A DNA stretch of 64,000 nt from Ascidiella aspersa (lineage: Eukaryota). The translations under genes were made by a program, and so were the position numbers. The stretch spans positions 13,206,001 to 13,270,000 of the forward strand of contig OZ004613.1 of NCBI GenBank assembly GCA_963924565.1. The letters are read 5' to 3'. This document shows positions 24,612-56,100 of the stretch, piece after piece (position 1 is the first letter of the stretch; every line of letters starts with the position of its first letter). A model generated the notes under the pieces. It was not told the origin of the DNA, searched no databases, and worked only from the letters and a program-made list of their open reading frames with translations.

Positions 24612-26900
24612 TCTTGTGTGATGGCTTAGAAAGCGAGCGCGAAAGACTCACTTGGATTTCTATATCTAATGTTTTTGCAACTTTTACCATATAAACTCTC
24701 GATTTTTTTTTGCCTTTCCATCGAACGTTTGTTTATGTTTTACTACATTTATACCTGTTTTAAGCAAATATTTTCCACCAAAACGCACCGTGCACATACA
24801 CGGCATGGTCGGCATGTTGTACTGCATGAAATCATATACTCTAGATTAGCATTTTTTGTCAATTTAAAGTATGCCAATATAATGAGCAATATTGTGTGCT
24901 TCAAACGTAATAGTTTGGCAACTTGAAACAAATACATGCAAGTTTCTGTGCTTGCCGCTATGCACGCCATAGATAACTTCAGTTATATATTTTTACAGGA
25001 TTTCGCTTCAGAACAGCAGGTTAAAGACTTTGTGGCTTGCATGGTTGCATGTTGTTCACGTGGCTACTGTGTGTTTCTAATCGTGTGTGGTGTTGCGCTG
25101 CGTCTGTTTGATCGACGCATCAGCTAATGAACATTAAACGCTTCAACTTCTGGTTATGAAACAACTTTGTGTTGGTATTTTTAAAAAATGTTATGATCCT
25201 CTCCCCCAAAAAAATCCTGGATCCGCCCTTCTATGTCCAATTGGGCTACTTTTTATTTGTGTCAATTTTCTTTATGAAGCAAAGACTATACTATAAATGG
25301 GTTATCACAGTAATTAACTTAGCATAAGGGCCCGTTCAACCACTGGTTCGGGTACTATCGGGTACAAAGAACTTTGATCCCACTTTCAAAAATTGAAATA
25401 TCCGCTTGCCCACGGCACATATCTTTCCACAAGTGTTTATTTCAATTTGGAAAATAGTTTTGATCAGTCGTAGATATTTGGTTTGTTACAATTTTCAGAG
25501 ATTATAAAATCAACATGCTGTGTGTAAGGGCTTTTTGTCGTGCTGTAGCAAAGCTATAAATATGTATATGCCACAAATTCTTGGCTTAACACAATTAACA
25601 TGTGGTGCTGCGTTGGTTCATGGGCCATAAAAAGTGCTTCTACGCTGAGTCATCTGTAAATCGACATTTCTGAGTGTTCCACAGTTCGTGGCACAACCGG
25701 GGAGCAACAAATTCAATTTAGTGCCTCGAGCTACTTTTGTGCTGTGCCATTGGCTTCAAGCCAAACCAGATGTCTACCAGTGAAGTGTAGTTCATCTTTG
25801 CCAGTATCAGTATGTTAAATAAAGTTCAATTCAGCGCACTATATAAATTTTAGAAGTGAAGTACGGAGTAACAGTTGTTTTAAAACAGATTTAAACAAGG
25901 GTTTAAAATGGACTTCAATAGTTGTGTTTTATAAATGTAGGTCACTCTCAGTGTCGTACAATAGGATTAAAGAAAATAATCTTATTTATGTTCCTTCCTA
26001 AAACCAAAGAATTCAAAACTTCTTAAATCGTTCTATTTACCCCTAAAATCTGCATTCTTGTAAATTGGGCGGCACACTTAAAAGTCTATGATTTACAAGT
26101 TCAGCTTATATAATTTGGGTCGATAGGTACTTGCAGCATTGTCTTGCAGCATGGTCTTTGTTTATTAGTTGATTAATTGAAGGAATTAGAGAACGTCTTT
26201 GAAAATATTTCAATTTTGTTGGACAGTGATAAAATAATATAGTGTTAAAATGAAACGATTTAGTTTTATACAGCCCATACATCTCTATCTGCAGACAAAT
26301 GACCTACTGCGAGAAATGACTTAAAGCAAATACCGTTATGTCCGATTTTATAAATACCGGTATAGCCTTACGGGTTTGACCAAGTTACCATGGTCAGTCA
26401 TGTGTGTGTATGTCATACAAACGCGGCAACTAACCTAAATATTACAGTTAAGAAGACCAACACTAACCGCGTATATAATACAGAAGGAGCGGATCTCGGA
26501 TAAGTTTTCCCGGCACAAAATAATGCCATAGTATTAAATTATAGTTTACAGTATTTTTCAATGCTACAATGGTCAAGTTATTTTAACTTTTACGTAAACT
26601 TTTTACCAACTAAAATAAAAGCCCCTGGGCCAAAACACGTTGCACTGCTTTGTCTTAGATTGACAACCATTTAGCTTTTTGAAAACTGTTTGGCCAAATG
26701 GGAAGTGGTTTACTGTGGTTATCGCTAAACGTACGAATACAGCAAGGAAAAATAAATTTGCTGAAAACAATTTACATCCAACCACTAGTTTAAATGACCC
26801 TTTTATCTGATTTTTAACGCCGGAGTGCTGATTCGGGATAAAATTACTTATTTGTATATTTGTTGATGAACCAATGATAACCTTTACTATATAGTAGAGT

Positions 26901-29900: not shown

Positions 29901-31372
29901 TGCCCGAGATCTTTTCGTGGCCAGCACCGAGACATCTTCCACCAACCTCTGCTGGTGCCTAATCTTGCTCCTAAATCATCAGCAATATTACCAACCTATA
30001 GTTGACGAGATACTAGGCTTGTTGGGTGAGAGTGACGTTAAGTTAAGATTCAAACAATTTTGGTTTGTTAACGATGTGCTGTGTTTGGTTTGTTAAACGA
30101 ACGAATTAAATTCCCACGGCACAGATGACATATATTTTTGGCTGCATAGTTTTTTCGAAGATACCGAAGCGTATTTTGTAAAATATTATGTAGGCCCAAA
30201 TTACTTGCACAACATTTGATGGCACTGATGCTGACAAGCGATTAACAAATAACCGATTCCAGCAGCAAAAATATGTAAGTGTAGTAGAATATTAGCTAAT
30301 ATTTTTGCTACGATAAAACATATTTACTTATTCAAATTTAATTGCCCATGGATCCTGACAAGTAAAATGTTTACATGCAAATACTATAAAGTTGTGTGAA
30401 TAAACTATTTGATCGTTGCGTTGATTTTTTTCAAAGGATCCGGAGTAAAGTTTACCCTTTCGATGAAGGATGACTTGCCGCTGACATCCGCGTTTCTACA
30501 AGAGGTGCTGAGATTCCGTATTCCGGCGCCTATCTCTCATCACAAAACCAACTCCAACGTCAAATTGATGGGCTACGACATACCCGAGGGAACTCAGGTT
30601 TCCAACTATTGTTTTGCTTTGCGATAACGGTCTTAGATATATATTTATTGAAGGCAGCACAAATACTAACTTTAAGCGATTACCTTTAATGATCATTATA
30701 TACTGTAAATAGAGTAAACGATTACTACAATGGTAGAAATGTAAAACAGCAACAATAGCAACGACAAAATTACTGCAAAAAAGTAGTAAAACTTTTTATA
30801 CTTTATAAATGTAAACCTTGATCACCCTTATAAACCATGTGCAAAAAGTATTATCAAACACAAAACACAAAATCATTGAAATAAGATATAAATTGTTGAA
30901 ATAACATTCATATCATTTGGATCGGGTGGAGGACGACCGAGTTAGGGCGAGGGTTGGTTAGCTATTAGGTTTGTTGTTAGACAAATATTGTTTAATGTTA
31001 TTCCGAAGGGTTTAATTTGTATTTCGGGGGCTTGTATTTGTCCACGCTCTATAGGCCTCGTTACGTTTTTAGCTGCACTAAAATCCGATGGGTATTTTAA
31101 TGGAATTTGTATTTTTAGTGTTTTAACAAGACGGTATTAGTTTGAAATAAGACTTATTGCAACTTACATTCGTCTATTTAGGCCCTATTTCAAATAATGC
31201 TTTATTCGCTTTTCTATAGCCAATTTAGAATGTTACAAAACTGGTGTTTAAACGTCTTTAGGTCGAAGATCATTTCTTAACGAGAGCAAATTTCAACGGT
31301 ACCCTGTATTTGTGTATCCGATTGAATATCGCATTTTTAACCCGCATTGTTACTTTCCCTATCAAGGTAACT
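26901..31372 (+). pseudogene. Cytochrome P450 (CYP2 clan) copy A: exons 1-8 intact, heme-binding exon 9 absent except 6 nt
   Basis: Exons 26901-27173, 27463-27608, 27986-28088, 28352-28461, 28774-28895, 29224-29348, 29881-30025, 30437-30597, all open and the same length as in copy B. Remnant acceptor ATCAAG|GTAACT at 31366-31372; no FxxGxRxC seen before copy B. Pseudogene status is uncertain. Confidence 0.75.
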
Positions 31373-33829
31373 TGTAGAATAGTTACCTATATACTTATGA
31401 CCTACAAATCATCCGAACCAAAATTTATTTGAATAAAAATAATCCTGAACGCTGGGTGAAAAATCCATCTTAGAGCCAAAATAGATAGAACCTTGTAAGT
31501 TTAGTGAGATTGAAAATAAAGTTCGTTTTACTCACGTGTTTTTATGCTTCGCACTTCTGTTTACAATTGAGCTAAATCACTATTATTGCTCAATTAATTA
31601 AACGCACGTAGAATAAAGTGACAAAATCCAGCCATATCATTATATACTATTATCTACCATCAGAGTCGCACCTGACTACTGCTCGGCTTAATGACCAGCA
31701 ATGATGAATGACTTTGACCTTACCTAAATCCATACAAAGTGAAATGGTAGTGCGTGTTGTTTCTTTTGTTTGCACACTCGAAAAAGGGCAGAAAAAGTAT
31801 TGCAGCCTACGGAAATACACCGTAGTATAAAACGGTTAAGTGTTTATCTTATCATCGCTTTTTCTTCTGACGTCTCAATCGTATTGAGATTTGCCATGGA
31901 TAGTAATATTGAGTTATACCTCAACCTGATAAAATGTCAATTTCCATAACTGGCAGGGACATTTGCGTTACTAAATCTTCTCAAGAGAGGATACTGTGCT
32001 TTATTTGCGTTAATTGTCGTTCGACTTGTGCATGAGCTACATTAAGTTTGTTTAGTTGTGTTTCATATAGGTGTACTTTTTGCAATCTCTTTTATATCGT
32101 ACAATTAGTAAACGCGTTTGCTTCGTTTTCCATAAGTCTGTATCTTTTTTGTCGCAAGATCGCCTAATTGTTGAGCAACAGCCCGTTGATACAATGCGCC
32201 AATTTCGTTCTACTTACATGTGAGATGATCCTGGTGTGACTTTTATTCAATGCTTGCCTCTAATCGCAACTGTTTGCATTAATTGTATAGTCTGTGGTAC
32301 CTGAATGCGAAACAAATTATTTTGCGTAACAAACTTACGTCGGTAATAAACGATTATTGCCCTTTCCCCGAACATTCTTGACGTAACACAAACAATGCTT
32401 TAATTTAGCGTATTTTAGCCTTGGTTGGATCAGCTGCTGTAAATAAAAGGGGCATCACCAAAAACGACGTAGATGGATACTTCGATGACTTGTTAAAAAA
32501 ACTATCCAACATTTTGCACAAAAAAACACAAAGAACAAAACAAGTCGCGTAATAGATATAAATATATATTCCAAATATCAATATATATACATAATATATA
32601 TTAAATCGTTTACACGTGCACTCGTGGACTAAATATATAACGCTGCGTCATCACTGGCCTTTCTGTCATCGGCGCTGTGGACAACGGTTCTGACTCAGTG
32701 CCTCGAGCAACGAACGTTCATGCATGAAAGGCTACTCGCGTAAAGCCGAGCAAACGGTCAGTTGTTAGTGTGAAGTTAGTGTCAGTCGCAGTGTATTTAG
32801 TTGTTTACGAAACGGATGGTACCAGAACGCATTGCTAAAATGAACACAAGCAAGACTTGCAGAAAAAATCGCATTGCTACATTCTTGAACAAGGTTTATA
32901 AATTGTACTTGTTAAATTTGGCAGCACGGTAGCGTATGCCTTCAAAACATAAAATGAGATTTATTTACAAACCTAGTGGGCCAGATAAAAGAAAGGTACT
33001 GTTTGAATACGACTAAACTGTATAAAAGTTTATTAAATATTGTGGATTCAACTAACTTCCCAATTGTTTGTTTTATAACAATTCAACTTATAACTTATCA
33101 GGTTAACAGCTACAAACTGTGCAACATCGGCATGGTAAATGTCTCACTAATGTAGGAACCATTCTTGGGTAACTAGAAAATGTGCGATTTTATTCAGCAA
33201 ATGTTAAGAAAGAAATAAGCAGCATGGTTTAGCTCAAAGCCCTGTAGACTTTACATCGTGACAAAGCACTACGTAAGAAACGTTGTGCCGTGACAATTTA
33301 TAATGCAGCACTTCCTGTGTGACAACGTTGTAATGGTTCATATGGTGCGATAGCGTATGTCGTATACACCGACCGCAGCGGTCATAAATAAAAACATTGT
33401 TGCAAACAAAACTTTCAGCACTGGCGTCCGAATATTGAAGTGGATTAACAAGAATTTTCTCTTAACAAAATACGCCATAATTTTAGGTCATTTAACAATA
33501 GTTCAAAATTTGCACAAAGACAAGTGGTATTTATTTGCGCACTCAAAAATTTCTTGGCGTTTTTCTCATGTTGTCCTCGATTCCGTGAACGTTATCTAAC
33601 AAAACTAAGATTTCCTTTATGCCAGAATGCGTTTAAATTGCTTTATTTTGTGTTGGAGAATGTTGTGTTTTGGAAATGTTTGATGTGATTATTACATGTG
33701 ATCACATGCAATAGAAACGGCTTGTTATGATGACCACTCCAATAAGCACAGTGATGGTATAGATTTGCGCAAATGTAGTAGTGCTATACAATTTTTCTTT
33801 ATATTTGCCAACCTATCAGAGCCGGTAGT

Positions 33830-36800
33830 ATGTTAGCCATTGTTTATCTGTTTTCTGTAACAACGTGGTGCACGCTAACTGCATGTGCCTTGGCGGCTTT
33901 TTACCTCTGGTGGAAAAGGCCCCACCACAATTTCCCACCCGGTGCCAGAGGAATACCCTTCCTTGGCGTTCTTCCTTACTGCAGCGATTTTCCCCACGAA
34001 GACTTCAATAAATGGAGCATGGAAAAGTACGGTCCTATCATGTCCGTTCGATTGGGATCAAAAGACGTTGTGGTACTCAACACATATGATGCCATTTATG
34101 AGGTAGATAATTGCCCCAGTATAGGTAACGAAGTGCTTGGAATTGTTTTTATCACTCTCGTGTATCTATTATAGTTTACTTGTTTGTGGTTTTGGCGGTA
34201 GACTACAGCTTGCACCCTAGCCAATGTTGCAAGACACCTTGCTGTTTAACAATTTGTAACGTTTAAGTTTATCACGCATTAGTAAGACAAATGAGCTAAG
34301 GCTACCATACTATATGTTCTTCTTTTATACATGCTTATATTTTACTTAAATAGTTGGGTCTTCCTATTGGTAACAGCACTGTATTAGTATTGCATACCAT
34401 ATAAGTGTCGCACCTTTTCAATATAATAAAAGTGGAAATGCGACGCAATATATAAATCATAATTTGATGTACTTTTAGGCAAAACGACTGTTTGCCTAAA
34501 ATATACACCCATTTTTAAGTTGTGTGATCACCACACCTGTCATTTACACAAATCATTTAAAACATCCAGGCGTTCGTCAAACAATCCAGCGAGCTCACTG
34601 GAAGGCCAAATTTGGCTGTCTACACGCAGGTTTCACACGATTTGGGGATCATGTTTGTCGACGACAGTGATGTATACAGGAAGCAGCGTCAGTTCGGAAT
34701 GCAAATCCTCAAAAAGTGAGAACATGTGTTTTATTTAACATTTAGTTTCCGGCAATTCATGTGTACCTATAAAGCTTGTTGATTATGTTTCACTCCATGA
34801 AACCGTATTTTAGTTAGTAAAATTATGTTTATTATTAATGTACATCTTTCGCAAAATTGTTCCAAAATATATTTTTGAACTGGTATGAAATGTTTTTTTG
34901 ATTTTATTTTATATCGATCTTCTAATGGTAAAATGCTGATCGTTGCAAATGACCATTAAAATGTTGCATCAAGTGTATCTCATTAAATTTATTGAAACAA
35001 TTGCAGGGGTGGTTTGGAAAAAAACAAAATGGAAAATATTTTGCTGAGCGAATCATCCCTGCTCATCGAGGCCCTTCGTAAGAAGGGGAGTTCCCCTTTC
35101 ACTATTAATGTTAGTAAAATATACTTTGTAACAAATAATCAAACATTAGTTTTATGTAATTGAGATAGTTTCTATTCTAATTATTTTGAGCCTACAACGT
35201 TTTGACAAACTACACAACCTTCTTAAGGACATGAATTGTACGCAATAGCGTTTAGTGTAACCAATCCTGATGAGCATAAGAAGACGACCGTAATAACCAC
35301 TAAAACTTTGAAGAACCATAATTACAAAGTAACTATTTTAAATAAAAATGGGATTGGAAAAAAACAGTTTATGTAAACGTCTAGTTATGGAGATAATGTA
35401 TTTTGGTAGATTTACTAGAAAATATTGGTCTATATTTCTACTAGTTACGTTTGAAAAATGTATTTTTTCTGTACTTATGTCCCTTTGGTTGAAATAATTT
35501 TCTTTTTTTAGGTTTGTCATAAACCACCTATAAACATTTTTTATCCGCAGCCTGTTATTTCTTTATCTACCTCGAACGTCGCATCTCTTGTGATTTTGGG
35601 AAAGCGGGTCGACGAATCAAATCCTCAATTTAAACGTTTGTTCACAGTTCTGAATAGAGTGTAAGTGCTTGCTTTACGGAATACGTAGGCTTCCTAAAAT
35701 ATAACCTGTAAAATGCATTAAAATACTTCTTCAAAAGGAGAAATTTTTTTTGAAATATAATTTGAAAGACAATACAGCTAATCAACATGTATACTTGAAC
35801 ATACATTGGAGTAAAAACTAATGCATAGTCAAGAAAATAATCGAATTGTACACATTTGTACCTCACTGCAATTCCATAACAAAAACAATCTAACATAAGG
35901 TATATTTTACTCTTTTTGTTTAAACCTAACGAAAAATGTGTGTTAGATTTTATGAGCCGAAAATGGCCTACAAAACAATGCTTCTTATTCTCTTTTGGAA
36001 TCTACGTTATATTCCTCCATTTAAGAAGGCCAATCAGCTTGTCAAATCCTATCTTGGTGAACTTTCGGGTAACTTCATTTTACGTATTATATTTATTAAC
36101 CTGTTTACAAGCTATGCAACAACCTTGTCGCCTTGGAAACTTTAGTAAAACGAAACGTATTCCTCCTAGTAATAACAAAAACTTATAGTCTGCGGATTTT
36201 GTAAATACTTCGTCAAATGAACAGTGAACACTGAACCTGCTTGTTTATATTTAATGCACTTTAAAAAATCTCACATAGGACATGTTTATTTTTTATGTTT
36301 GTCTTCGATATGGTTATTCATTAAAATCTTAGCAAATGTGAATATGATTACTTTTTTGATATACCGACATGTACGTATAGTTTATCCCAGGGAGAGATTG
36401 TCAAGTGTGCGGCGAAACTATTTGTATTTTTGGAAAGGTTATTTGTATTACCAATAGGCAGAGACTTAAATACGCCTTACATATTACGAATTATTCATAT
36501 TGAGACATACATATAGTTTGTCGTGTGTTAAAGGGCGATTGTAAAAATGACTCTATTGTTGTTCTGTTAAAAGTGTACCGCGAAATATTTAAGATATTTT
36601 TAGTGTGCCGCGAGCCAAAAAGTTTGGGAGCCATTGGCTTATCCGATAGCATGCCAACATACATTAAGCACCAACATTTATTCTTTTGTACTGTGCAACA
36701 GATTTGTTTCAGGAGTTTGTTGACGAACGAAAGGAGAATTTCGACCCGGAAAATGCAACCGACTTTTTGGGAGCTTATATTAAGGAACAGCTCAACAGAA

Positions 36801-38577
36801 CGCAGGAACAAGAAACCTCTTTCTCCGTAGGTTGACTTCTGTATTTTACTAATTTTGTTATTTCAAAACAAGCAAAGGGAACAATCAGATACCTGTGTTA
36901 ATTAAATACCTGTGGTGATCAAATACCTGTGGTGATCAAATACCTGTGTTGATCCAATTCACGTGGTTATCCAATTCCTGTGGTGATCAAATACCTGTGG
37001 TGATCCAATACCTTAGGTGATCAAATATCTGTGGTAATTAAGTACCTGTGATGCAGTACTAGTTGCGATACTAGTCGTCGTTTTCATGATTGATGCGCCA
37101 TATTTAGAATAGGTTTTTGGTGAGAGACGGTTTTCAGGGGTCTCTGGCGAATTACCCCGTTTGGACAGCTCTTATAGTGACATCTTAAATAAATGAATTG
37201 TTGTCGTTTGCTTTCGTTTTTATAAAGGTTTTCCCCAATTTTTTTTCGAGTTTTCGGAAAACGGGCAAACTTATTTTTCACGACAAACAACTTTAAATCG
37301 CAAAAGAAAGCTAAAAAGACATTTCAAAGTTGTGCACAACTATATCCAAAACTTTTTGGCAACATTTCTGAAATGTGCGGTTAAACCGTAGCTAAACATT
37401 AAAAATAACTAGTTGTTCACTGCATTTTTAGGACGACCAACTGAAGGTGTACACCCGAGATCTTTTCGTGGCCAGCACAGAAACATCTTCCACTAATCTC
37501 TGCTGGTGCCTAATCTTGCTCCTAAACCATCCACAATATTACCACCCTATAGTTAAAGAGATCCTTGATGTTTTGAGTAAGTGGAGCTTTAACTTAAGTG
37601 TATTTGCATTAACTTTGGTTTGAGTTTATTTTGTGTTTAGTTTATTTTAAGCGAAACACCAGCCACCAAATACATTTCGGTTCAATAAGCTTGCATAACT
37701 ATTTTTTTCTCTGTTTCGCATAATAATGATTTGATTCAACAGGATGGATCAAATTTAAAGTACAAACAAACAATAACAATTCTGGCTTTCCAGTAAAAAA
37801 CAAAAATGTGGTACAAGAGTAACTTAAATTATTTCAAATAACCCATCGTATGATCCTAAAATGCGAAATATTTTATACATGCCTGACAACAATTTAGAGT
37901 TTAGACCGAAGTTCGAAAATAAAGATAATGGTTCGTGTAAAAGGTTAAACCTTGTCTCACATTTTTAAAAAGAACCAGGAGAAAAGTTTTCACTTTCGAT
38001 GAAGGAAGACTTGCCACTTACCTCCGCGTTTCTACAAGAGGTTCTAAGGTTTCGTATACCTGCTCCCATGTCTCACCACAAAGCCGCCTCCAACATAAAA
38101 CTGCTTGGCTACGACATACCCAAGGGAACACAGGTGTGGCAATATCCTTCTATTTATCACGTCCTTGAGCGAAAAAAACAGAAAAACTTTTTATTTTTTT
38201 AAATGGTTAAACCTATCTTGCTCTCCCCGGCCTCACATAATATTGTTGTACATTTCCACACCAAGGTAACTGCAAACTTTTACGGCGCCTGTATGGATCC
38301 CGATCTGTGGCCAAAACCTGAAGTGTTTAACCCCCACCGGCACATCGACGAACAAGGCAGGTTCGTGTTTTCACCTAAAGTAATGGTCTTCTCCGCCGGA
38401 TTTCGCTTTTGCATGGGCGAGCGCTTGGCTAGAGCCGAAGTCCTTTTTCTATTCGTGGAGATCATCAGGAACTTCCACATCGAGTCGGTGAATGGAGCGC
38501 CATCTATGGTTCCTGGCAGTAGCAATATCGTTCTTCCGCCTAGAGAGTTTCAGGTTGTGCTTACTGAGCGCAAATAG
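33830..38577 (+). CDS. Cytochrome P450 (CYP2 clan) copy B, 9 exons, ~498 aa
   Basis: Exons 33830-34102, 34570-34715, 35007-35109, 35551-35660, 35947-36068, 36702-36826, 37432-37576, 37973-38133, 38266-38577. N-terminal anchor and FPPG, I-helix DLFVASTETS, K-helix EVLR, IPKGT, heme motif FSAGFRFCMGERLA. Confidence 0.95.
36884..37052. repeat. 17-bp minisatellite (AAATACCTGTGGTGATC) x ~10 in CYP-B intron 6
   Basis: Degenerate tandem units seen directly, with no unique spacers. Confidence 0.85.
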
Positions 38578-41500: not shown

Positions 41501-41625
41501 CCTCAGCTTCGCAAAACGAAAACTTGTCGTATAATTAAGAAATAAAAATAAAATGATCTTACAATTTATTTGATATTTTATTACATCAGTTACACAACTA
41601 CTCGCCAGCAAAACTAGACGCTATC

Positions 41626-44249
41626 ATGCGCATCGGCTTAACACTGTTGCTTATAGTCTTTTGCTTATATTTGCTGGCTGAAGTATGCCAGGCTGGCAAA
41701 AACAAAAATGATCCGAAGGGGACTAGCAAGAAAAGCAGCGGAAAAAGCAAAAGTAATAAAATAAACAGGGCGGGTCCGTCGAGCGGTTGGGACAAACGCA
41801 AGAAAATGAAAAAGAAGACAAAGAAACGTGGCAGCTTCAAGACAAAGCAAGTTTTACCTTGACACTAACTTCAGTTGCTAGTTTTCTGTTTTGCCTATTT
41901 GTTTAGGCTTAACATGCTTTTCAACAATATAGAGTATGCTGTGTATGTTTTCCGATGTCACGTATACAGTACAGACTGTAAACAAGTTTAGACTAATGTT
42001 GTCCGATATTTTGTTTATTATTCCGATCGATAACCATTCAAGACCAACGTAATTGGTCTACTGTACTATATACTTGGCATGTGTTAATGGCAGTCAAATA
42101 CTGTCAAAGACCCCAACCTACACTCCGACGCATGTCCTTAACGTATTTTTAAATCAGTTGGAGTTTTGCATAGTTTTATAATTTAACCGTTTATTTGTTC
42201 AAGGCTTGCACTGACAAGTACGGTCGTCTTGGCTGGTGTTCTTTATACGACGAGGCCGCGATTCCGCACTCACAGAACAACGCCCGAACTTGCGTCGGAT
42301 TATTTGTAAGTAGCAGCTAAAATTAAATCTCCTCGGCATCCAGATCGAAAAGGCATTTCTTCGTCGTTACGTCCACTTTCGTTTATGCTAAACTGCCTGG
42401 AAATAAGTTCTTAGTTGTTATACTGTAAGCGCTACCATGTTGCACAACTAAACAATGAAACAATAATCTACTATAAACGCTTTCATTATTAAAAATTCTA
42501 ACAAACTAGAAAAACCTTAAATTTTCAGTACAACTACAAATGTTATAAGGGACAGGTGCAAATTTGTTAAATTTTACCAAATATATTCTGCGCAAAACAT
42601 ACATAGAACATTTGTATTTAGATCAGGGCGTTGATTATTTCTTAACGGTTTGTAGGCCCAAATAGCACATTTCAATAAAATTTGCAATTCAAATACGTGC
42701 TTAGTCTGGGTTTGTTTCCTTTTCTTAGTCATATCAACTTAAATAATTCAAAAACCCACATAGCAAGGAGCAAAGTATATCAATTATTTATGGGCGTTTG
42801 GTCGAAACCCTTTAGAAGGTGCGTGCGATTTCTTATCGATGCTTTCAGGTATTACCAGTCACGTGACCTCGATCCACGTTTTAACGTCAACGGCAACCGA
42901 CTTCACACAGCCTTTATTTTGCCTTTGAACAACGACACAATGTACGATTGCTTGATCGTATCCCAACACACCAGTAAGTGCCTGATGAATTGTTTTTGAT
43001 TCAGTTAAGTATACATTACCTTTCCTACTACATTTTTTAATTTTCTCTTATTTTACTATTAAACTGATAAAAGGGTATGATTAAAAAAAAACTACTGAAG
43101 TGGAACAAACTTGTTTTCGTTAAAGGCATAATCCAATACTCATATCTGTCCACATATTGTGTGTTTTTGCCAGTGTTGTAAACAAGTCGTTTTTAAATGA
43201 CTTTAGTCCCAGTCAAGTAATTTGAAAAATACCTTAAGTCCAAGTCAAGTCTTTTGCAAAAATTACAAGTCAAGTCCAAGTCCCAATTAATCGGTTACCC
43301 AAGTCAAGTTCCAGTCAAGTCATTATGCAAGCCAGTCAATTTCAAGTGTTAAACCATTAAAATTTGTAAACTCCGCCGATAATGCGCAACAGTTTAACTA
43401 AAAAATAACACAAACCCAATACACAACAATAAAATTGTTTAATGTGCAAAACTTAAGATACATTTTAATAAAAATCTCTTTATTTAACTTAAGTCCAAGT
43501 CGAGTCATTTTCCAAAAGACTTAAGTCAAATCAAGCCATTACAGTGACTTAAGTGCAGTTAATTCTATTCACTGATTTAAGTCATTACAACACTGTTTTT
43601 TGCTGCTCCTTTGACCTACGGAGATGCGATACATAATTACGGACTAATGCGAACTTTTTTTTTAATATTAGGGATATAATATTAGGGTAATAAGGATTGT
43701 GCTAGAGCCAACAAAGCAGGTTGAATTAGCTGTTCGTCACACCTTTTCGACTAATACGCCAACAGCTTTGGAAAAGTAATTCAGATTAGCTACAGCGGAA
43801 TTGTGCCCAAACCGATAAACCCACACAGCGCCTTGATTTCACACGAAAACTAATTAAAACTATTATCGGGATAAAAACTCTTTAAAACCAATCAGGACAC
43901 AGCATTACCATATTCGTGTTTTGTTTTGAAACAAAATCTACATTTGGGTTGCCCATTTGTATACCTTTTGAGACACCGACCTATATATTCATTTTGCATT
44001 TTGTAGTGGTTTTACTTTGCTATAAATAGCTTTCTTGTTACAGAGAAAAGTGACTGCCCAAACGCCTTCAGGAGCCATATCACCAATACAACCAAGTTTC
44101 GTTTTCCAAACGAGTTTAATGCCACCAATTTGCTTCAGCCACGCAGTTACAAAGAGATCGCCCTGTGTTGTGGTGCTATGTCTCTGCTACCATCCATTGG
44201 AAATGTGCTGCTTTTACTGACAGTGACAGTACGCTATATTCTCCTTTAA
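41626..44249 (+). CDS. Small secreted, probably GPI-anchored protein (~217 aa) with PrP/Shadoo-like layout and Shisa-like motifs
   Basis: Exons 41626-41846 (GC donor) or -41850 (GT donor), 42204-42305, 42849-42973, 44044-44249; AATAAA overlaps the stop. Signal peptide, Lys-rich region, hydrophobic stretch, 4 mature-region Cys, 3 N-glycosylation sequons, C-terminal CCGAMSLLPSIGNVLLLLTVTVRYILL. Confidence 0.7.
43171..43595. mobile_element. hAT-like MITE with internal CAAGT(C) repeats
   Basis: TIR CAGTGTTGTAA / TTACAACACTG; TSD GTTTTTGC/TTTTTTGC; relatives at ~59824-60240 (inverted) and 63698-64000. Confidence 0.8.
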
Positions 44250-44866
44250 TAAAGGGTGTGTGTGTGTAAAGCTAAGGGTTCAATGATTTTGTAGTAAGGT
44301 TATACGCACAATGTTGAAAAAAATTCTCATTTTTGTCGCTCCAAATCGACAACAAATTATACTGTACCAAAATGTGGGGCAATTTGTTTTGTTTTTTGCA
44401 GATAAAACTGATCATTAGGCTTGCTTATAAACCTTAGTCACGATAACGCTTATCTAAAGCGTTGTTGAAGTGTTAGAGCTCGTGTCCTGTGTAAGTGATA
44501 TAAGCATGCTTGTTGGAAAACTTAATGAGTAAAGTATGAAGATATTTCCTCGCCCGTACATGTGAAAGACGAAAATGACTTCAAATGGGAGCAAATATTT
44601 TTAAATATTTTTCTGAAAAGTCTAAAGACTATTTAAAAGCATGCTTGTTATCTGATAATTGCGGGAGTACATAGTGGTGAGTGTATACTTGTATGTTGTG
44701 CAACTGTGTGACAAAATGGCAACTTTGCACAACAAGATGTTTTATTAAACAAACAGGAAATTTATTCTATTAAAAAGATTTCGTATGACGCTTCATAATA
44801 TTTTTTCGGTAAAAGTATTACGCTTATTGGTTTTCCAATTATACAATTTTGTATCCGTATGTAAAG

Positions 44867-46610
44867 CAGTGATTCCCACCCTTTTCGTGTTTGCTTTCAC
44901 GTGAACTTAAAATAATTGCGACTCGTACCTCTTCCTTCGAGAAAAATCTAATTCCAATCTAATATCTACTATTTCATGTACAAAACATACTGAATATAGA
45001 ATCCGGCGGAGATCGTTTTCTGGTTTATGTCATTTGAAAGCGATGGCAAGCAAATCAAACACTGCGGGAGAAGCTCACTTTTTTGTTGATTTTAAGCCAC
45101 ATATTAGATATTCCAGGTCGTACTTTCGCTTCGACGTGCTCCAAAGATAAAACAGCTCATTTGTAATTGACTCAGTTTCTAGCAGGGTTGCGGAAACGGT
45201 CAAAAACAACTCAAGTCCGAATCCCGAAGTTAAATCCGGCAAAATGAATGAATTCGAGTGCGACCTTGGTCAAATTTGCCGATTCTGATTAGTCCGGTTC
45301 CATCCCCGACTCTATAACCTGTATTCCGTCCACGTAACTAAAAGACGGTGTATACAGTATGTAGGAATCCACTCATAATCGTGTCTTACATATTACTCAG
45401 CCACATAAAGCGTTTCGAAAACATTCCACCATATAGATCTAGATTTCGTATTGCGCATGCGCACGTCGGACCCGGGAATCGCGAGTTAAGAATTCTTACG
45501 TAGCCTTACTATGACTGCAGGGTAATAAACTGACTCCATCGAGTTTTAATATAAGTCTGATTTCGAAGCCCTGCCTTTGACTGCAGTACGCCTCAAATCC
45601 TTAACTGACAAGAAGAGATGTAGACGTATTAGCATCTCCGTTAATAATATTTTTATGACATAATAATATTCAACTAATTATTGTTCGCAAAAGTTGCTGT
45701 CCAACCGGGGTTACCAGATCGGTCATTTTACGACCACAAATTAAAAATTTGACATTTTTAGAATGCAATGCAATTCGTTTTTTTTTTTGTTTGGCCGTTT
45801 GCTCTTTTTAGCGTTTATAGAAAAATTAGCAAGATATGCACTTTTAGTAATAATATTAATAAAATAGTAGTCATTTTTGTAAATATTACTGTTTTAATAA
45901 AGTAAATATTACAATTTATTAATATTTTTTGCCTAAAGTGTGTGCGCTGTGTTGCTAAAACGAATACAGGGAATGTGAAAACAATTCGTAGCTCTTACGT
46001 AAATATGAGATGCAGCTGTGTGTGTCTGCTAGATAGATGAGGTTTGTGCGTTGTTTGATCTTAGTAGTGGCATCACTTCCGAAAATATTACATTCTGAAA
46101 ACTTAGCGTACGTGTTCCGCCGAGTTCCGCAAAGGCACTAAATAAATATATACGCCATTGCTATCAGATCGGAAAATTTGGCCTGTTGCACTATATAACG
46201 CAGCCCAACTCTCCAAATTAACTATAATACAGCCACGTAATTTTAAACGTTGATCAATGTCTTCGTAGCGCAATAAATATAAAGTTTCCATCTGTCAAGG
46301 ATTGAATAAGCAATATGTTCTTATAATACCCGAAATCCATAAGCAGTATTTTAGTTTTAAATTCATATTTTACCTGTATTTAAGAAAGTCTGACCTTTTT
46401 AAGTTTTTGCAACTGGCCGTCGTAACCCTCTGATTAACTTAGTTTTACACTTTAAATAGATCAGTTGAGTGCAACAAGGGACCTAGCGGATAAAATAATA
46501 AAGAAACAAGGATTTTGAGATCACATTGATGGTCCAATTCAATCTATAGACTATGACCACAAATTACGGAAAGGTGCTCGCGTGCTGCGAACGACTGGTT
46601 GGGAAAAAGT
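44867..46610. mobile_element. Degenerate hAT MITE cluster including a nested element at 45183-45573
   Basis: CAGTGATTCCCACC start, GGTTGGGAA end, flanks ATGTAAAG/GTGTAAAG; internal CAGGGTTGCGG...GCCCTG homologous to 16748-17040 (inverted). Confidence 0.5.
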
Positions 46611-47166
46611 GTAAAGTATATCCGTGATTTAAACTATGTGCCTATAATCTAAACTCAAAACTGGGGTCCTAGTAATTTTTGTGGCAACGGTCACTGTGAT
46701 TAAAGCAAATTCGTAGCTAAGTTATGCAAAACGAAATACAAAGATTAAGTGGACGATACACTTAAAACAAATCAGGCTTCAACCACTTTAGGCTGTAACG
46801 TAAAACGAAATTTATCCGTTTTTTTACGTTTTTGTAAGAAATGGCTAGTACTGTGATGCACCATTGCAATTCAGCTCTAACGGGAGCCCAGTAACAAAAA
46901 TAGGAATGTGGAATCGCTCTATCAAAGCGTAGAAAAGAACCCGGGCCTTATAACGCAAGAGTTTTTATACAAGAGTATTTTTAACTTGCCGCGGCGAATT
47001 CCCCTTCAAGAGAAACCGCAGGAAACTCCCAACGCTGACAAAAAGCAGTCGCGACGGGGCCTGCTACGGTTAACCTGTCACCCCGAATAGGCGCACTATA
47101 TATATTGACCTGCTAAGTTACCAGCACTATATGTTAGATGTTACCGTAACGATGACTGGATAACCG

Positions 47167-50100
47167 ATGCACACTGCCATGTCGCTGTTGAAGACATGCA
47201 AAATGCGCAAAGCGAATGCTTCTTTATTTTCTTGTTTCACAATTCTGATATTGGTGGCCCACGTAGAAGCAAATCGCCAAGGTAAGATAATTATAATTAA
47301 ACGTTTTACGAGACTTTATTTGATTGTAAAAAGCTTTACGAGACACAGGCACATAGTGGTCTTAGACTTAAAACACTTAGCCAGGTTTTTATTTCGGAGG
47401 ATTTAAAAGCTTTAAAAGTACCGAAAGGTAGTTTTGTTTGTGTATTTTAAGGTATTAAGCTGAAACACTTCTATTTGAATAAGAAACTGACGATGCCTTA
47501 TAGGGGTAATATATATTTCTGAAAGATTTTAGGAAATGATTTTATGTTTTATCTGTTTTAATAAATAAACAGTTTTAAGATCTTTTAAGGTATTACAAGC
47601 AAATTTCGGTGCACAGGAGTATCTCGGAACAACAACTTTTCTTAAATAGCAAGGCATTGATGAATCTCTAACAATTACTATTTGTTTAGAGAAATTAACT
47701 GTCGAGATTGAGTCAAACCCAAATCATATTCTTGGAAACATTTTCTCAACAATAGAAGTGTAAGTAACAAAATTGTAAAAATGTTCACACAGATTGTTTG
47801 TTCTTTTTCAAAAACTATAATTTTCGTTGTATTTTATGGTAATAACTTGCCATAGCATTTTTTTTTTTAATTTTCTTAAAAATAATATAGATTTTATGTG
47901 GCATATGAGCCATATTAAACACGTTACTATCAGAACAGTAAGTCATTCATACTTAAAAAAAAAGACTTCCAAATATCGCCGTATTCCAACAAATGTAAAC
48001 CAACAACCTAAATCAAAACAGAAGCGTTCAATTGATTTGCCTTGGTTTGGTTTCAGTTGTTTAAATAGTTAACGTACGGTCCTCAAATATAATCTTTAAC
48101 AAACCAGTGCCACTGCAACTGCTTTAGTCACTTGGGGTTTTGCGTTACGTTTAAGCATCGGGTAACAATTTCTTTTAAGCTGTTTTTCAATTCGTTCGAG
48201 TTTTAATTGGAGAATCGGAACACCGTATAATGCCTTAAAACTGACAATTTAACGTCGTTAAGAAATTGAAGCAAACTTAAAAGGCCTGAACGTACTACAT
48301 ACTTTTGTCTAACGTAAATTTACAAAACTAGTTTTTAAAAACAAAAAATATTTGATCGATTAGGTTGAACACGCAGTTTGAAATTTTGCTGTGTTCCTGT
48401 GCATTTCGTCAAATATGGCGAAAAGTGTGGCTGGGACGCCCAACGTGGGCTGCCTAATGTAATCATACAAGTTGAATAAATTGATAAGACCACCATTACA
48501 AGTTTTCTAACACAATTTACGCAATAATATTGCGCGTGCAGAATTTGTATCACAAGTAATATCGCAGTCTGTGTTGAAAAGCTAATCAAATGTACTGTAC
48601 TTTACGAAGAAAAATTAAATTAAAAAACAATAGAATATACTACAAATTTACTAAAAATAGAAAATATTGTGTTGCATGATTTTGTGTCTTATCAAAATGA
48701 TTTATTTGTTTGATACGATTTCAATATTTAAAAAAAAGGAAATACAAAAAAGAAGCCAGTGAGATCATTGGAGATTCAACATTTTCATTTGGTGAGTGTA
48801 TCTCACAAAGGGTAATATTTTAATGATTGCATCAACATAATAATCTAACCTGAGATCACATTTACCTTGCAGAGTTGAGTATTTGCTATACGAGAGTATC
48901 CAATGAAATGCAAAACCAACAAAACATCATTTTGAAAGGTAATAAAATCAAATTCATGTTCAAAACAAGATGCGCAAATAAAAAAATCGCAATTTATACA
49001 TTTCAGGTCAAATTACTTGTCCAACCACAAAAACTTGCAACAGTAAAATTGACAATGTGCTAGAAATGGCAACACCATGTCCAAGTTCGACGACCCTAAA
49101 ACCAACAACAACAGCCACCACAGATTTAACTACTTCACCAGATCCAACAACCACCGCAGAATCTACTACGTCATCAGATACAACAACCATAACACGATCT
49201 ACTACGTCACCAGATCCAACAACCAACATAGGTTCTAGTATGTCACCAGATCCAACAACCATAAGAGGATCTACTGCGTCACCAGATCCATCAACCATAA
49301 CAAGCTCTACAACGTCATCAGATCCAACAACCTTAACAGGATCTACTACGTCATCAGTTCCAACAAGCATAACAGCTTCCACTACGTCATCAGATCCAAC
49401 AACCATGACAGGTTCTACTACGTCACCAGATCCAACAACCACTACAGGTTCTTCTACGTCACCAAATCCAACAACCACCATAGTTTCTGCTACGTCATCA
49501 GATCCAACAACCATAACAGGAGCTACTACGTCATCAAATCCACCAAACATAACAGGGTCTACTACGTCACCAAATCCGACAACCACAATCGGTTCGAGTA
49601 CGTCATCAGATCCAACAACCTTAACAGGATCTACTACGTCACCAAATCCAACAACCACTACAGGTTCTACTACGTCATTAGATCCAACAACCATAACAGC
49701 ATCTACTACGTCATCAGATCGACCAACCATAACAGGATCTAATACGTCATCAGATCCAACAACCATAAAAAGAACTACTACGTCACCAGATCCAAGAACC
49801 ATAGCAAGTTCTACTACGTCACCAGAACCTACAACCATAACACGGTCTACCACGTCACCAGATCCAACAACCAACACAGGTTCTTCTACGTCATCAGATT
49901 CAACAACCACCATAGGTTCTTCTACGTCATCAGATTCAACAACCATGACAGGATCTACTATGTCACCAGATCCAATAACCATAACAGGTTCTCCTACGTC
50001 AACAGATCCAACAACCACCATAGGTTCTTCTACGTCATCAGATTCAACAACCATGAAAGAATCTACTACGTCACCAGATCCGACAACCACAATAGGTTCG

Positions 50101-53100
50101 AGTACGTCATCAGATCCAACAACCACCATAGATTCTACTATGTCATCCGATTCAACAACCATGAAAGGATCTACTACGTCATCAGATCCAACAACTATGA
50201 CAGGTTCTTCTACGTCACCAGATCCAATAACCAAAACAGGTTCTACTACGTCATCAGATCCAACAACTTTAACAGGATCTACTACGTCACCAAATCCAAC
50301 AACCACCATAGGTTCTACTACGTCATCAGATACAACAACCACGATAGGTTCAACTACGTCATCAGATCCAATAACCACAACAGGATCTGCTTCGTCATCA
50401 GATCCAACAACCACCATAGGTTCTAGTACGTCATCAGATCTAACAACCATAACAGGATCTACTACGTCATCAGATATAACAACCATAACAGGTTCTTCTA
50501 CGTTACCAGATCCAACAAAGACCATAGGTTCTAGTACGTCATCAAATCCAACAACCATAACAAGATCTACTACGTCATCAGATATAACAACCACTACAGG
50601 TTCTTCTACGTCACCAGATCCAACAACCACTAAAGGATCTACTACGTCACCAGATCCAACAAACAACATAGGTTCTAGTACGTCATCAGATCCAACAGCA
50701 ACTACAGGTTCTTCTACGTCAACAAATCCAACAACCACTAAAGGATCTACTACGTCACCAGATCCAACAACCACCATAGGTTCTAGTACATCATCAGATC
50801 CAACGACCATGACAAGATCTTCTACGTCACCAGATCCAATAACCATAACAGGTTCTTCAACGTCACCAGATCCAACAACCAGCATAGGTACTTCTACGTC
50901 ACCAAATCCAACAACCACTAAAGGATCTACTACGTCACCAGATCCAACAACCACCATAGGTTCTAGTACGTCATCAGATCCAACAACCATGACAGGATCA
51001 ACTACGTCACCAGATCCAATAACCATAAGAGGATCTACTGCGTCACCAGATCCATCAACCATAACAAGCTCTACAACGTCATCAGATCCAACAACCTTAA
51101 CAGGATCTACTACGTCATCAGTTCCAACAAGCATAACAGCTTCCACTACGTCATCAGATCCAACAACCATGACAGGTTCTACTACGTCACCAGATCCAAC
51201 AACCACTACAGGTTCTTCTACGTCACCAAATCCAACAACCACCATAGTTTCTGCTACGTCATCAGATCCAACAACCATAACAGGAGCTACTACGTCATCA
51301 AATCCACCAAACATAACAGGGTCTACTACGTCACCAAATCCGACAACCACAATCGGTTCGAGTACGTCATCAGATCCAACAACCTTAACAGGATCTACTA
51401 CGTCACCAAATCCAACAACCACTACAGGTTCTACTACGTCATTAGATCCAACAACCATAACAGCATCTACTACGTCATCAGATCGACCAACCATAACAGG
51501 ATCTAATACGTCATCAGATCCAACAACCATAAAAAGAACTACTACGTCACCAGATCCAAGAACCATAGCAAGTTCTACTACGTCACCAGAACCTACAACC
51601 ATAACACGGTCTACCACGTCACCAGATCCAACAACCAACACAGGTTCTTCTACGTCATCAGATTCAACAACCACCATAGGTTCTTCTACGTCATCAGATT
51701 CAACAACCATGACAGGATCTACTATGTCACCAGATCCAATAACCATAACAGGTTCTCCTACGTCAACAGATCCAACAACCACCATAAGTTCTTCTACGTC
51801 ATCAGATTCAACAACCATGAAAGAATCTACTACGTCACCAGATCCGACAACCACAATAGGTTCGAGTACGTCATCAGATCCAACAACCACCATAGATTCT
51901 ACTATGTCATCCGATTCAACAACCATGAAAGGATCTACTACGTCATCAGATCCAACAACTATGACAGGTTCTTCTACGTCACCAGATCCAATAACCAAAA
52001 CAGGTTCTACTACGTCATCAGATCCAACAACTTTAACAGGATCTACTACGTCACCAAATCCAACAACCACCATAGGTTCTACTACGTCATCAGATACAAC
52101 AACCACGATAGGTTCAACTACGTCATCAGATCCAATAACCACAACAGGATCTGCTTCGTCATCAGATCCAACAACCACCATAGGTTCTAGTACGTCATCA
52201 GATCTAACAACCATAACAGGATCTACTACGTCATCAGATATAACAACCATAACAGGTTCTTCTACGTTACCAGATCCAACAAAGACCATAGGTTCTAGTA
52301 CGTCATCAAATCCAACAACCATAACAAGATCTACTACGTCATCAGATATAACAACCACTACAGGTTCTTCTACGTCACCAGATCCAACAACCACTAAAGG
52401 ATCTACTACGTCACCAGATCCAACAAACAACATAGGTTCTAGTACGTCATCAGATCCAACAGCAACTACAGGTTCTTCTACGTCAACAAATCCAACAACC
52501 ACTAAAGGATCTACTACGTCACCAGATCCAACAACCACCATAGGTTCTAGTACATCATCAGATCCAACGACCATGACAAGATCTTCTACGTCACCAGATC
52601 CAATAACCATAACAGGTTCTTCAACGTCACCAGATCCAACAACCAGCATAGGTACTTCTACGTCACCAAATCCAACAACCACTAAAGGATCTACTACGTC
52701 ACCAGATCCAACAACCACCATAGGTTCTAGTACGTCATCAGATCCAACAACCATGACAGGATCAACTACGTCACCAGATCCAATAACCATAACAGGTTTT
52801 ACTACGTCATCAGATCCAACAACCATAACAGGATCTACTACGTCATCAGATTCAACAACCATAACAGGATCTAGTACGTCATCAGATCCAACAACCATAA
52901 CACGATCTACTACGTCACCAGATCCAACAACCATAACAGGATCTACTACTTCATCAGATTCAACAACCATAAGAGCATCTACTACGTCATCAGATCCAAC
53001 AACCTTAACAGGATCTGCTACGTCATCAGATCCAACAAGCACTCAAGAATCTACTACGTCACCAGATCCAACTACCATAACAGGTTCTTCTACGTCAACA

Positions 53101-56100
53101 GATCCAACAACCACCATAGGTTCTACTATGTCATCAGATTCAACAACCATGAAAGGTTCTACTACGTCATCAGATCCAACAACCACAACAGGATCTACTA
53201 CGTCATCAGATCCATCAACCATGACAGGATCTACTACGTCACCAGATCCAACAACCATAACAGGATCTACTACGTCACCAGATCCAACAACCACCATAGG
53301 TTCAAGTACGTCATCAGATATAACAACCCCTACAGGTTCTTCTACGTCACCAGATCCAACAACCACTAAAGGATCTACTACGTCACCAGATCCATTAAAC
53401 ACCATGGGTTCTAGTACGTCATCAGATTCAACAACCATAACAGGATCTACTACGTCATCAGATCCAACAACCGTACTAGGTTCTACTACGTCATCAGATC
53501 CAACAACCACCACAGGTTCTTCTACGTCACCAAATCCAACAACCACTAAAGGATCTACTACATCACCAGATCCAACAACCACCATTGGTTCTAGTACGTC
53601 ATCAGATCCAACAACCATAACAGGTTCTACTACGTCATCAGATCCAACAACCATGAAAGGATCTTCTACGTTACCAGATCCAATAACCATAACAGGTTCT
53701 TCAACGTCACCAGATCAAACAACCACCATAGGTTCTTCTACGTCACCAAATCCAACAACCACTAAAGGATCTACTACGTCACCAGATCCAACAACCACCA
53801 GAGGTTCTAGTACGCCATCAGATCCAACAACCATAACAGGTTCTACTACGTCATCAGATCCAACAACCACCACAGTATCTACTTCGTCATCAGATCCAAC
53901 AACCATAACAGGATCTACTACGTCACCAGTTCCATCAATCACTATAGGTTCTACTACGTCACCAGATCCAGCAACCATAACAGATTCTACTACGTCACCA
54001 GATCCAACAACCATAACAGATTCTACTACGTCATCAGATCCAACAACCAAAACAGGTTCTTCTACGTCACCAGATCCAACAACCAACATAGGTTCTAGTA
54101 CGTCATCAGATCCAACAACCATAACAGAATCTACTACGTCATCATATCTAACAACCATAACAGGATCTACTACGTCATCAGATCCAATAACCATAATAGG
54201 ATCTACTACGTCATCAGATCCAACAACCTTAACAGGTTCTACTACGTCACCAGATCCAACAACCATAACAGGTTCTACAACGTCATCAGATTCAACTAAC
54301 ATGACAGGTTCAACTACGTCACCAGATCCAACAACTGACACAAATTCTACTACGTCACCAAATCCCCTTAACAATTCATCGAGTCTGTCATTGCCTGATA
54401 TTTTCGTAATGATCAATCAATCCCAAGTTATTACACTAAACGTGAGTACTTCGATCGTTTTTTATCTGTTTGTAGTTGATCATGAACATTTACGGATGCA
54501 TTAACTAAAATTCTATATGACACAAGTTTGCATTTACGAGCCGTATACAATTATTACAGTTTAGAGTGGATATAACAGAAGTAGGTTTCATTTTCAACGT
54601 TTCGATATAGATATTCGTAACGATGGAAATGATACCTATTTCGATATGGGCTTTCAAATTTTTACTAACATTGTAAAAATAATGCGAAAACTAAGTATAA
54701 GCACTAATTCCTAATAGTTTGAATTAGACCTCAATGGGAACAAAACCTCAATTTGTTTGCCACGATGTAAGTAATCTATTACCTAACACCAACTTACATC
54801 CCTCACTTTATATAAAACATTTCAACCGTTACCCTAATTCTAACCTTCAACGTTCGTCCGTTGCCAGAAGAGCGGCGCCGAAAGCACGATATCATATCTT
54901 TGGCAGACCAGTGGCTTTAATCGTCCTACCCCCTTTACCCGTAGTTTTATGCGTTATTTAGGCGATTTCCATCTTATTTAGGTCTTTTTGGTTATGTCAC
55001 TGTTCTTCATACTGTAATAAATCAAGAATTCTGATTTGCATATTATTGAATTTTAGGTCTTTACGTGTGTTTTCGTTGATAACCGTTTTCTACCTAAATA
55101 TATTTCTTCACAAACTCCATTATAAAATACTTTTTAATGAAACCATGGCATTATATATGTTTAGGTATACTGATACCCAACGTAATTTTTTTTTTAATTT
55201 TTTTTTTTTTTTTTTTTTTTTTTTAGCAAGCAGAAGAATTTGTTGGCAATTTATCTAATATACTGGGAAGTTCATTAAATCAAAGTGATGCAAGAACGTA
55301 AGTTGCTTTAAATGTTTTTTACAAACTTTGGTTGCATTTATTTACAAAACTTGGTGCATCTATTACTCTTTTAGTCAAAAACACGTTCGGCAATAAATCA
55401 GCTTGTCTTTTTGTATCATTCGAAAATAAATGATGCACAATGTTTTAAACTGTTTCCATATGTATTTCAGATTTCTTCGTTCTGTCGATGATATCGGTGC
55501 TAAATTGACTCTTTCTACTGGAAAAAGTTTTCAGACTGTAAAATCTAAAAATTTAATAGTGGTCATAGTGAATATACCAGGTAGATGTTGGTCGTCAATA
55601 ATCATTAACTTAGAATCAGTATAACATGAATTATTTCCATTGCCTTAAATGAAAAGTTTGGTGATTTATTAAAAAAATTGAACCGTTTTAATATAGAAAA
55701 CCCCACTCCATTGGGTCTTGGAAATTCTTCCAATGGAATGCAGGTCACCGAGTACAATTTATTTAACACCAGCCAACCCCCAACAAACACAACATCGTAT
55801 ATTCAAGTTACAAAAGACTTTATCGAAAAACTTAACGGTACTTTGAACATCGGGTAGACTCCTATGATGTATTTAAAGTACTATATATGTTGAACTTAAA
55901 CGGACCCTAACAATTATTTTCGACACTTACTAAGAGTGCTTAATGGAAGTTTTAGTGTAAACGCTTATGTGTTTCTCAACACTAATATTTATTTTAGTTT
56001 AAAATTCACCATATGCCGTTAGGTACCCGGATCGGCTTTTATGCAATGTCCAAAGAGGTATTTCCAATAAGGTCGAACGAAGATTATGTTTCACGCAACG

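Follow-up and report, generated by a model that had tools for sequence, protein, structure and literature searches.

A four-exon ascidian gene encoding a protein with a prion-protein-like layout and a predicted beta-rich core

We describe a gene at positions 41626-44249 on the forward strand of a 64,000-nucleotide stretch of the Ascidiella aspersa genome (GenBank assembly GCA_963924565.1, contig OZ004613.1, positions 13,206,001 to 13,270,000), here called the window, in whose own numbering coordinates are given. It is a real spliced gene of four coding exons, and its 217-residue product has the parts of the prion protein (PrP) in the PrP order: a signal sequence, a basic disordered tail, a hydrophobic stretch, a glycosylated disulfide domain, and an end that is of glycosylphosphatidylinositol (GPI) type by its pattern. 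The protein belongs to a small family of uncharacterised ascidian proteins, the sequences of which are already in NCBI and which is newly recognized here as a family. We read it as an ascidian analogue of Shadoo and of the N-terminal half of PrP, a GPI-anchored and N-glycosylated surface protein with a polyanion-binding basic tail and a predicted beta-rich four-cysteine core that stands outside the prion family, and we put the probability of this reading at roughly 0.58. A first-pass annotation made from the window sequence had raised a convergent PrP-like surface protein as one possibility, and among the explanations considered below this is the one that fits best.

Gene structure

The four peptide pieces from which the first-pass annotation assembled the gene are found at 41626-44249 (+ strand), and its proposal that four in-phase exons encode them is borne out. 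Of 107,800 splice combinations tried, 325 maintain an open frame, and nine of these have GTAAGT at donors 2 and 3, so that proof from outside the window was needed for the four-exon model. This is provided by one Logan contig (run X3, record 15, 1386 nucleotides), which spans 41588-41846, 42204-42305, 42849-42973 and 44044-44926, corresponding to the four proposed exons and 217 amino acids, and agrees base for base at all three joints. Intron 1 (41847-42203, GC-AG, phase 2) requires a GC donor, a feature absent from the first-pass description; enumeration and contig likewise place intron 2 at 42306-42848 (GT-AG, phase 2) and intron 3 at 42974-44043 (GT-AG, phase 1). The same contig ruled out a rival exon model, in which a GT donor at 41850 is used and exon 2 is read in another frame to give 210-225 amino acids. 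The depth of X3 is 11-18.5 on exon bins, as against 0-0.7 on bins that fall entirely or for the most part within introns 1 and 2, and a raw RNA run (X4) leaves a trace on exons 2-3 only (depth 0.75), with a depth of 0 wherever exons 1 and 4 are coding. The reach of the contig defines a 5′ untranslated region (UTR) within exon 1 at 41588-41625 and a 3′ UTR at 44250-44926, and further X3 pieces extend to 45385.

Three other observations concern the transcript and its introns. The contig begins (window 41560-41589) at an AG that is preceded by a run rich in T and lies 38 bases ahead of the start codon, and a single base beyond it has no match; spliced leaders occur in ascidians, and this AG may be a trans-splice acceptor or that of an upstream exon. 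Intron 3 contains a high-copy repeat (43170-43600) of short tandem units and inverted arms, with a summed contig depth above 100,000 in both X1 and X2, which looks like a miniature inverted-repeat element. The 3′ UTR has a repeat peak as well, a weaker one, near 44464-44624.

Anatomy of the protein

The frame opens with the start codon and a putative signal peptide (residues 1-23, 41626-41694, with a putative cleavage point), which has a Kyte-Doolittle peak of 2.5 over 19 residues and is matched by the same N-terminal hydrophobic stretch in the relatives described below. It is followed by a basic low-complexity tail (residues 24-74, 41695-41846), the 51 residues of which include 18 Lys and 3 Arg versus 2 acidic residues, for a net charge of +19; an allele in X2 and X3 carries a 9-base insertion behind 41773, within this tail, that keeps the frame. 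Exon 2 (42204-42305) encodes the Val/Leu-rich hydrophobic stretch (residues 75-88) and an Arg-rich linker (89-106). The core occupies residues 107-192; its cysteines are at 142, 154, 191 and 192, and it carries sequons at 136, 164 and 175. Its first half (residues 108-150) is encoded by exon 3 (42849-42973), with predicted strands and with Cys142 at 42949-42951, and its second half by the first part of exon 4 (44044-44171), where Cys154-Pro with a predicted helix is followed by the sequons at 164 and 175 and by a predicted last strand running to Cys191-Cys192. The remaining codons and the stop codon (44172-44249) specify a GPI-signal-like tail, residues 193-217, with small residues first, a Pro-containing spacer and a hydrophobic end, and without a cytosolic part. 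Both the signal and the GPI assignments are made by sequence pattern. The mature window protein has four cysteines, three sequons and a hydrophobic C-terminus, and the signal, Lys-rich tail (18 Lys in 51 residues), hydrophobic stretch, sequons and cysteines are all as the first-pass annotation had described them.

A small family in ascidians

When exon 4 was used to search 1.84 billion representatives, five matches at E≤0.001 were obtained, of which two are full-length proteins from Phallusia mammillata and Clavelina lepadiformis, two are unnamed last-exon fragments, and one (P0003) was discarded as a repeat artefact since it has no pairwise match. The Phallusia protein (CAB3263252.1) is 48% identical to the window protein over 152 amino acids (pairwise E 2e-53) and the Clavelina protein (XP_076804218.1) is 42% identical over 121 amino acids; both are uncharacterised, and they represent two orders of Ascidiacea, in keeping with an ascidian source for the window and with the invertebrate genome suggested by the first-pass annotation. 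A metagenome scan yielded one further locus, L002 (2685-2879), seen twice and 61% identical over the last exon, in which the exon acceptor has the same codon position and phase as that of intron 3 in the window; no upstream exons of this locus were found within 2.7 kb. The family in hand thus has six distinct sequences, three full-length (window, Phallusia, Clavelina) and three unnamed last-exon fragments. Two of the fragments, L002 and P0005, are differing last-exon sequences, both on JGI (Joint Genome Institute) contigs, and their difference implies that paralogues exist or that different host species do.

The two full-length relatives share with the window protein the signal, basic tail, hydrophobic stretch, four-cysteine glycosylated core and GPI-signal-like end, and the cysteines of the family are spaced 12 / 35-37 / 1; judged by sequence they are likely its orthologues, and neither has been functionally named. 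Conservation is concentrated in the core, where 43 of 84 positions are identical with Phallusia and 40 of 84 with Clavelina, a score reached by none of 500 shuffles. In the basic tail the corresponding figures are 8 of 37 and 7 of 39, with a score no better than that of shuffles, and in the hydrophobic stretch they are 7 of 14 and 1 of 14. Both relatives have RGG- and Gly-rich tails with GGRGG-type repeats after the signal, whereas the window tail is Lys/Ser-rich and longer. All three tails are nonetheless net positive (+19 in the window protein, +11 and +10 in the relatives), and since their sequences are unlike, charge appears to be the feature that is kept.

Other searches added nothing to these six sequences. 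Word-based searching for homologues gave no match among 31 candidates at E≤10 with exon 4 and no candidate with exon 3, there is no paralogue within the 64-kb window, and a profile search of 2331 candidates, with lengths up to 272 only, recovered just the four proteins already known. In this length-limited search there was no match in Ciona, Styela, Botryllus, amphioxus or vertebrates, which is not evidence of absence. No Pfam family was found for either full-length relative at E≤10, single exons gave only sub-threshold Pfam matches, to the signal and the tail, and NCBIfam gave no match. Sequence searches of PDB by single exon gave nothing for exon 4 and, for exon 3, one CEA chain (E 0.12) that we take as chance. 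In the Pfam searches, and in the PDB searches by profile given below, the HMMER filters discard most matches above E of about 0.1. In the literature searched, consisting of titles and the starts of abstracts with most subscription papers outside its coverage, we found no report of a PrP- or Shadoo-like protein from any invertebrate, tunicates included, and the accessions of this family did not appear.

Predicted fold of the conserved domain

The fold was modelled on the Phallusia relative, which stands in for the spliced window protein. Two AlphaFold runs (with 6 and 7 alignment rows) predict the same core, composed of four strands and one helix, with a predicted local distance difference test (pLDDT) score in 10-residue blocks of 79-92 and 83-94 over most of its length; the lowest blocks (56 and 61) are near its end. 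The tail is predicted to be disordered (pLDDT <50). The core is therefore predicted to be beta-rich and unlike the prion-protein domain. The globular domain of PrP is built from three helices together with two short strands (PMC4324250), and the strand-rich model of the Phallusia protein speaks against the PrP-type helical domain that a prion relationship would entail. A Foldseek search with the whole Phallusia model gave best E values of 0.49 in PDB and 0.2 in a viral library, and the VIA rows of the fold search all aligned to the signal helix.

A possible mode of action

We propose that the signal would be cleaved after about residue 23 and the protein secreted to the cell surface and N-glycosylated, with the segment after the double cysteine probably exchanged for a GPI anchor and two disulfides presumably fixing the core. 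The core could then hold the basic tail away from the membrane, and it probably binds a partner. By analogy with the tails of PrP and Shadoo, the basic tail, conserved only as charge, may bind sulfated glycans, nucleic acid or microbial surfaces; the polybasic tails of those proteins bind nucleic acid and are antimicrobial (PMC7024060), and the analogy draws also on PMC2735946. The hydrophobic stretch, conserved only as hydrophobicity, might mediate self-association or contact with the membrane. Its way of working would then resemble that of Shadoo or of the PrP N-terminal half, although the protein itself would stand outside the prion family. Shadoo and PrP are alike in protecting PrP-null neurons from the toxicity of Doppel (PMC3282748).

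Neighbours by language model, and points against an analogue

The ESM Atlas was queried with the Phallusia protein (P0001) and has its own bars, a score of 0.9 and 170 shared features, scores under 0.9 being leads only. Its nearest neighbour is an unnamed 194-member cluster in which the proteins of known source are mostly cnidarian (score 0.93, 187 shared features), and further neighbours include fungal DUF7732 (0.85), nematode CX (0.80, rank 22, 148 shared features) and arthropod DUF4813 (0.80). The presence of cnidarian, fungal, nematode and arthropod clusters suggests that the layout is widespread, and because the cnidarian cluster is nearest it may itself be PrP-like in layout; going by the Atlas scores, this cluster, DUF7732 and DUF4813 probably have the same overall layout as the ascidian family. 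Only 3 of the 10 best family matches agree, a level of agreement that the Atlas reads as probably the wrong family, and exon 4 alone gave no usable match. No paper naming DUF7732 or DUF4813 was found in the literature search.

Several points weigh against the reading as an analogue outside the prion family. Its function, signal and GPI anchor all come from sequence pattern and analogy, and its expression is supported by one spliced contig, from a run (X3) whose kind is unrecorded and which is not on record as RNA, together with the trace of raw X4 reads. Among the indexed sequencing runs, none of RNA kind was listed as containing the gene. The predicted folds are based on alignments of 6-7 rows with only two full-length relatives; within each run the five models differ widely (mean pLDDT 46-65 and 52-74), and the model offered by the ESM Atlas itself is poor (pLDDT 0.38). 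The cysteine spacing of the family recalls the 14 / 34 / 5 of Doppel (PMC4324250). Finally, the second-ranked Atlas neighbour is the major prion protein, with a score of 0.89 and 172 shared features, above the bar of 170, and it is accompanied by a PrP fragment cluster (0.88) and by Shadoo at rank 5 (0.87).

Possible descent from a Shadoo-like precursor

Ascidians are tunicates, the sister group of vertebrates, and as chordates they are a place where a pre-vertebrate precursor of Shadoo might be sought. An alternative explanation for the layout is true homology. The GPI end and the module at the N-terminus, which comprises the signal, the RGG/basic tail, the hydrophobic stretch and the Arg-rich linker, would then share descent with Shadoo and with the corresponding half of PrP, the family being a Shadoo-like precursor with a core of its own. 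We consider this unlikely, although several observations favour it. The first-pass annotation had pointed to a PrP/Shadoo-like layout, which is present: Shadoo too has a signal, an RGG-rich basic tail, a hydrophobic stretch, an N-glycan site and a GPI-type end, and the Shadoo-type RGG tail is found in both full-length relatives, the window protein having Lys-rich sequence in its place. Comparison by eye shows that the GGRGG-type repeats follow the signal in the relatives as they do in mouse and pufferfish Shadoo and in zebrafish PrP, and that a Val-Arg pair opens the hydrophobic stretch in the relatives, in mouse Shadoo and in pufferfish Sho1 (PMC2745754 Fig S2). The Atlas scores of the two PrP clusters and of Shadoo point the same way, as does the fact that a model of this kind has been set out, section 11 of PMC2745754 giving two models for the origin of PrP, one of them a Shadoo-like precursor, and calling for sequences from early chordates.

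Against this, the shared parts are of low complexity and are not conserved in sequence even within the ascidians. The hydrophobic tract of Shadoo is a well conserved Ala/Gly repeat that matches the poly-Ala segment of PrP (PMC4324250), whereas the ascidian stretch is composed of Val, Leu and Ile, has 1-4 Ala+Gly in its 14-15 residues, and its sequence is not conserved. Shadoo lacks a globular domain, whereas the ascidian family has a conserved 85-residue cysteine core with a confident predicted fold; no Shadoo Pfam match was found; and the window gene has four coding exons and three coding introns, as compared with the one, or rarely two, coding exons of prion genes (PMC3203146). The Atlas also tells against it, in that an unnamed cnidarian cluster comes first, fungal, nematode and arthropod clusters appear as well, the prion scores lie below 0.9, and only 3 of 10 matches agree. 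The family is a candidate for such a precursor, but modules of low complexity converge easily, and descent cannot be shown from the present data.

It is similarly doubtful that ascidians keep an old module of basic RGG tail, hydrophobic stretch and GPI end, perhaps common to the cnidarian cluster, joined to an undescribed four-cysteine domain. If this were true, vertebrate PrP would have arisen by the insertion of a ZIP-derived domain into that module, as in model 1 of Schmitt-Ulms et al. 2009 (PMC2745754). Homology of the module would support an independent Shadoo-like precursor, and would provide a tractable invertebrate chordate in which to study the roles of the basic tail and hydrophobic stretch. 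If instead the proteins are analogues, as we favour, the prion-protein layout is a recurring design of GPI proteins across animals, and the case warns against taking layout or language-model similarity as proof of kinship. In either case an unnamed ascidian family with a conserved, unassigned domain is defined, one that joins the layout of Shadoo and the PrP N-terminal half to another domain.

Shisa, CX and ZIP domains

The CX module (PF01705) is a six-cysteine module. STMC6 proteins likewise have six cysteines, and their transmembrane helix leads into a cytosolic tail that is rich in proline and bears PPxY (PMC6125347). The core could be a degenerate domain of the Shisa/STMC6 or CX kind, one in which cysteines have disappeared and a GPI signal has replaced the transmembrane and cytosolic parts, an explanation that we regard as distinctly improbable. 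The resemblance lies in a small extracellular cysteine domain, predicted to be beta-rich, that ends in CC just before the membrane anchor, where the CC may reflect a distant link. The Atlas also lists a nematode CX cluster, only at 0.80 and rank 22, with its 148 shared features. However, all three full-length ascidian proteins have four cysteines rather than six or more, five of the six family sequences have no cytosolic tail, no proline-rich cytosolic tail or PPxY is present, and neither Shisa nor CX gives a Pfam match. The first-pass annotation had aligned the window sequence in a degenerate-Shisa register, and at the places it named for lost cysteines none of the three full-length proteins has one. 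The faint echoes of PrP and Shisa that it noted are present in the window sequence and are mostly lost in the relatives; in the echo of PrP centred on YDC and QHT, for example, the QHT is lost in both. The prion-like ectodomain of ZIP proteins (CFC) has a PALLY-type motif flanked by cysteines, and a multi-pass ZIP domain comes after it. In the ascidian core a Cys-Pro opens the predicted helix, but nothing like PALLY is present, and the chain stops after a single hydrophobic segment.

PrP and Doppel

The last explanation for the core is that the whole protein is a remote homologue of PrP and Doppel, with Cys154-Cys191 equivalent to the PrP disulfide and Cys142-Cys192 to the second bond of Doppel. 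The general likeness is a length of about 200-220 residues, two or three sequons, and four cysteines as in Doppel. The Cys154-Cys191 register was not used in the first-pass annotation and is closer to PrP than the echoes that it did use: the two equivalents are 35-37 apart in all five sequences that hold both, near the distance of 35 in mouse PrP (PMC2745754 Fig S2) and 34 in Doppel (PMC4324250), and immediately behind Cys154 there is a predicted helix, then a Thr-rich loop and a sequon. Comparison with vertebrate prion sequences was by eye, and an ungapped comparison of this kind with mouse PrP, starting from Cys154, gives 7 identities in 36 positions. Two Thr and one Arg among the seven do not vary across the four rows of the family alignment; yet three of the seven are Thr in Thr-rich stretches, and two more, both Asn, do not recur in the Phallusia relative.

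The remaining evidence makes this homology very improbable. Between the second cysteine and the CC, in the segment equivalent to PrP helix 3, every member has prolines (2-5 of them) and the prediction is a loop and strand, so that the ascidian core, with four predicted strands and one helix, contrasts with the helical PrP/Doppel domain. The motif C-x-N-x-[TS] follows the first core cysteine in 7 of 7 domain-bearing PrP/ZIP rows (PMC2745754 Fig S2), whereas in the family it is found at none of the three equivalents of Cys142 and none of the five equivalents of Cys154. The ascidian proteins are without the His/Trp octarepeats, and none of the three full-length tails contains His, so that they have no His metal-binding repeats. 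The Pfam prion-family models gave no match, and PrP or Doppel chains were absent from the 2 and 46 matches (E≤10) that two profiles, with and without the tail, returned from PDB; to this are added the three coding introns. On the features tested the protein is not a member of the prion family, and the prion link holds for layout only.

Membrane anchoring

As to its attachment, the protein might have no GPI anchor at all, with the C-terminal helix kept as a membrane anchor, the inner stretch transmembrane, or the protein simply secreted; this we think scarcely probable, since although the C-terminal 15-residue hydropathy maximum is 1.95-2.65 among the family sequences, an Arg at or near the end of the window and L002 proteins could act as a stop-transfer charge, and the hydrophobic stretch of PrP is reported to span membranes (PMC4324250), small residues directly follow the CC in all six family sequences, a cytosolic tail is absent from five of them (the sixth, P0004, looks like exon read-through), and the inner stretch is just 14-15 residues long with a 19-residue hydropathy of 1.15. 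The segment after the CC is 23-26 residues long in five of the six sequences, consistent with the GPI-anchored analogue that we favour.

Neighbouring genes

The gene lies among cytochrome P450 genes, a sugar/SLC22-type transporter and a secretin-family seven-transmembrane (7TM) gene. Just upstream are the P450s, two tandem genes with near-identical first exons (26898-38577, + strand), and on the - strand are exons of the transporter (13834-15211), one of which has a Pfam Sugar_tr match. Downstream on the + strand there is a Ser/Thr-rich stop-free frame of 1840 codons (48982-54504), containing about 145 copies of a 36-base unit, and after it an exon of the secretin-family 7TM type (58712-59065), and it is likely that the two belong to an adhesion G-protein-coupled receptor whose mucin-like stalk would be very long. 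Earlier exons of this putative receptor may be represented by two short frames at 46881-47282, which have no Pfam match.

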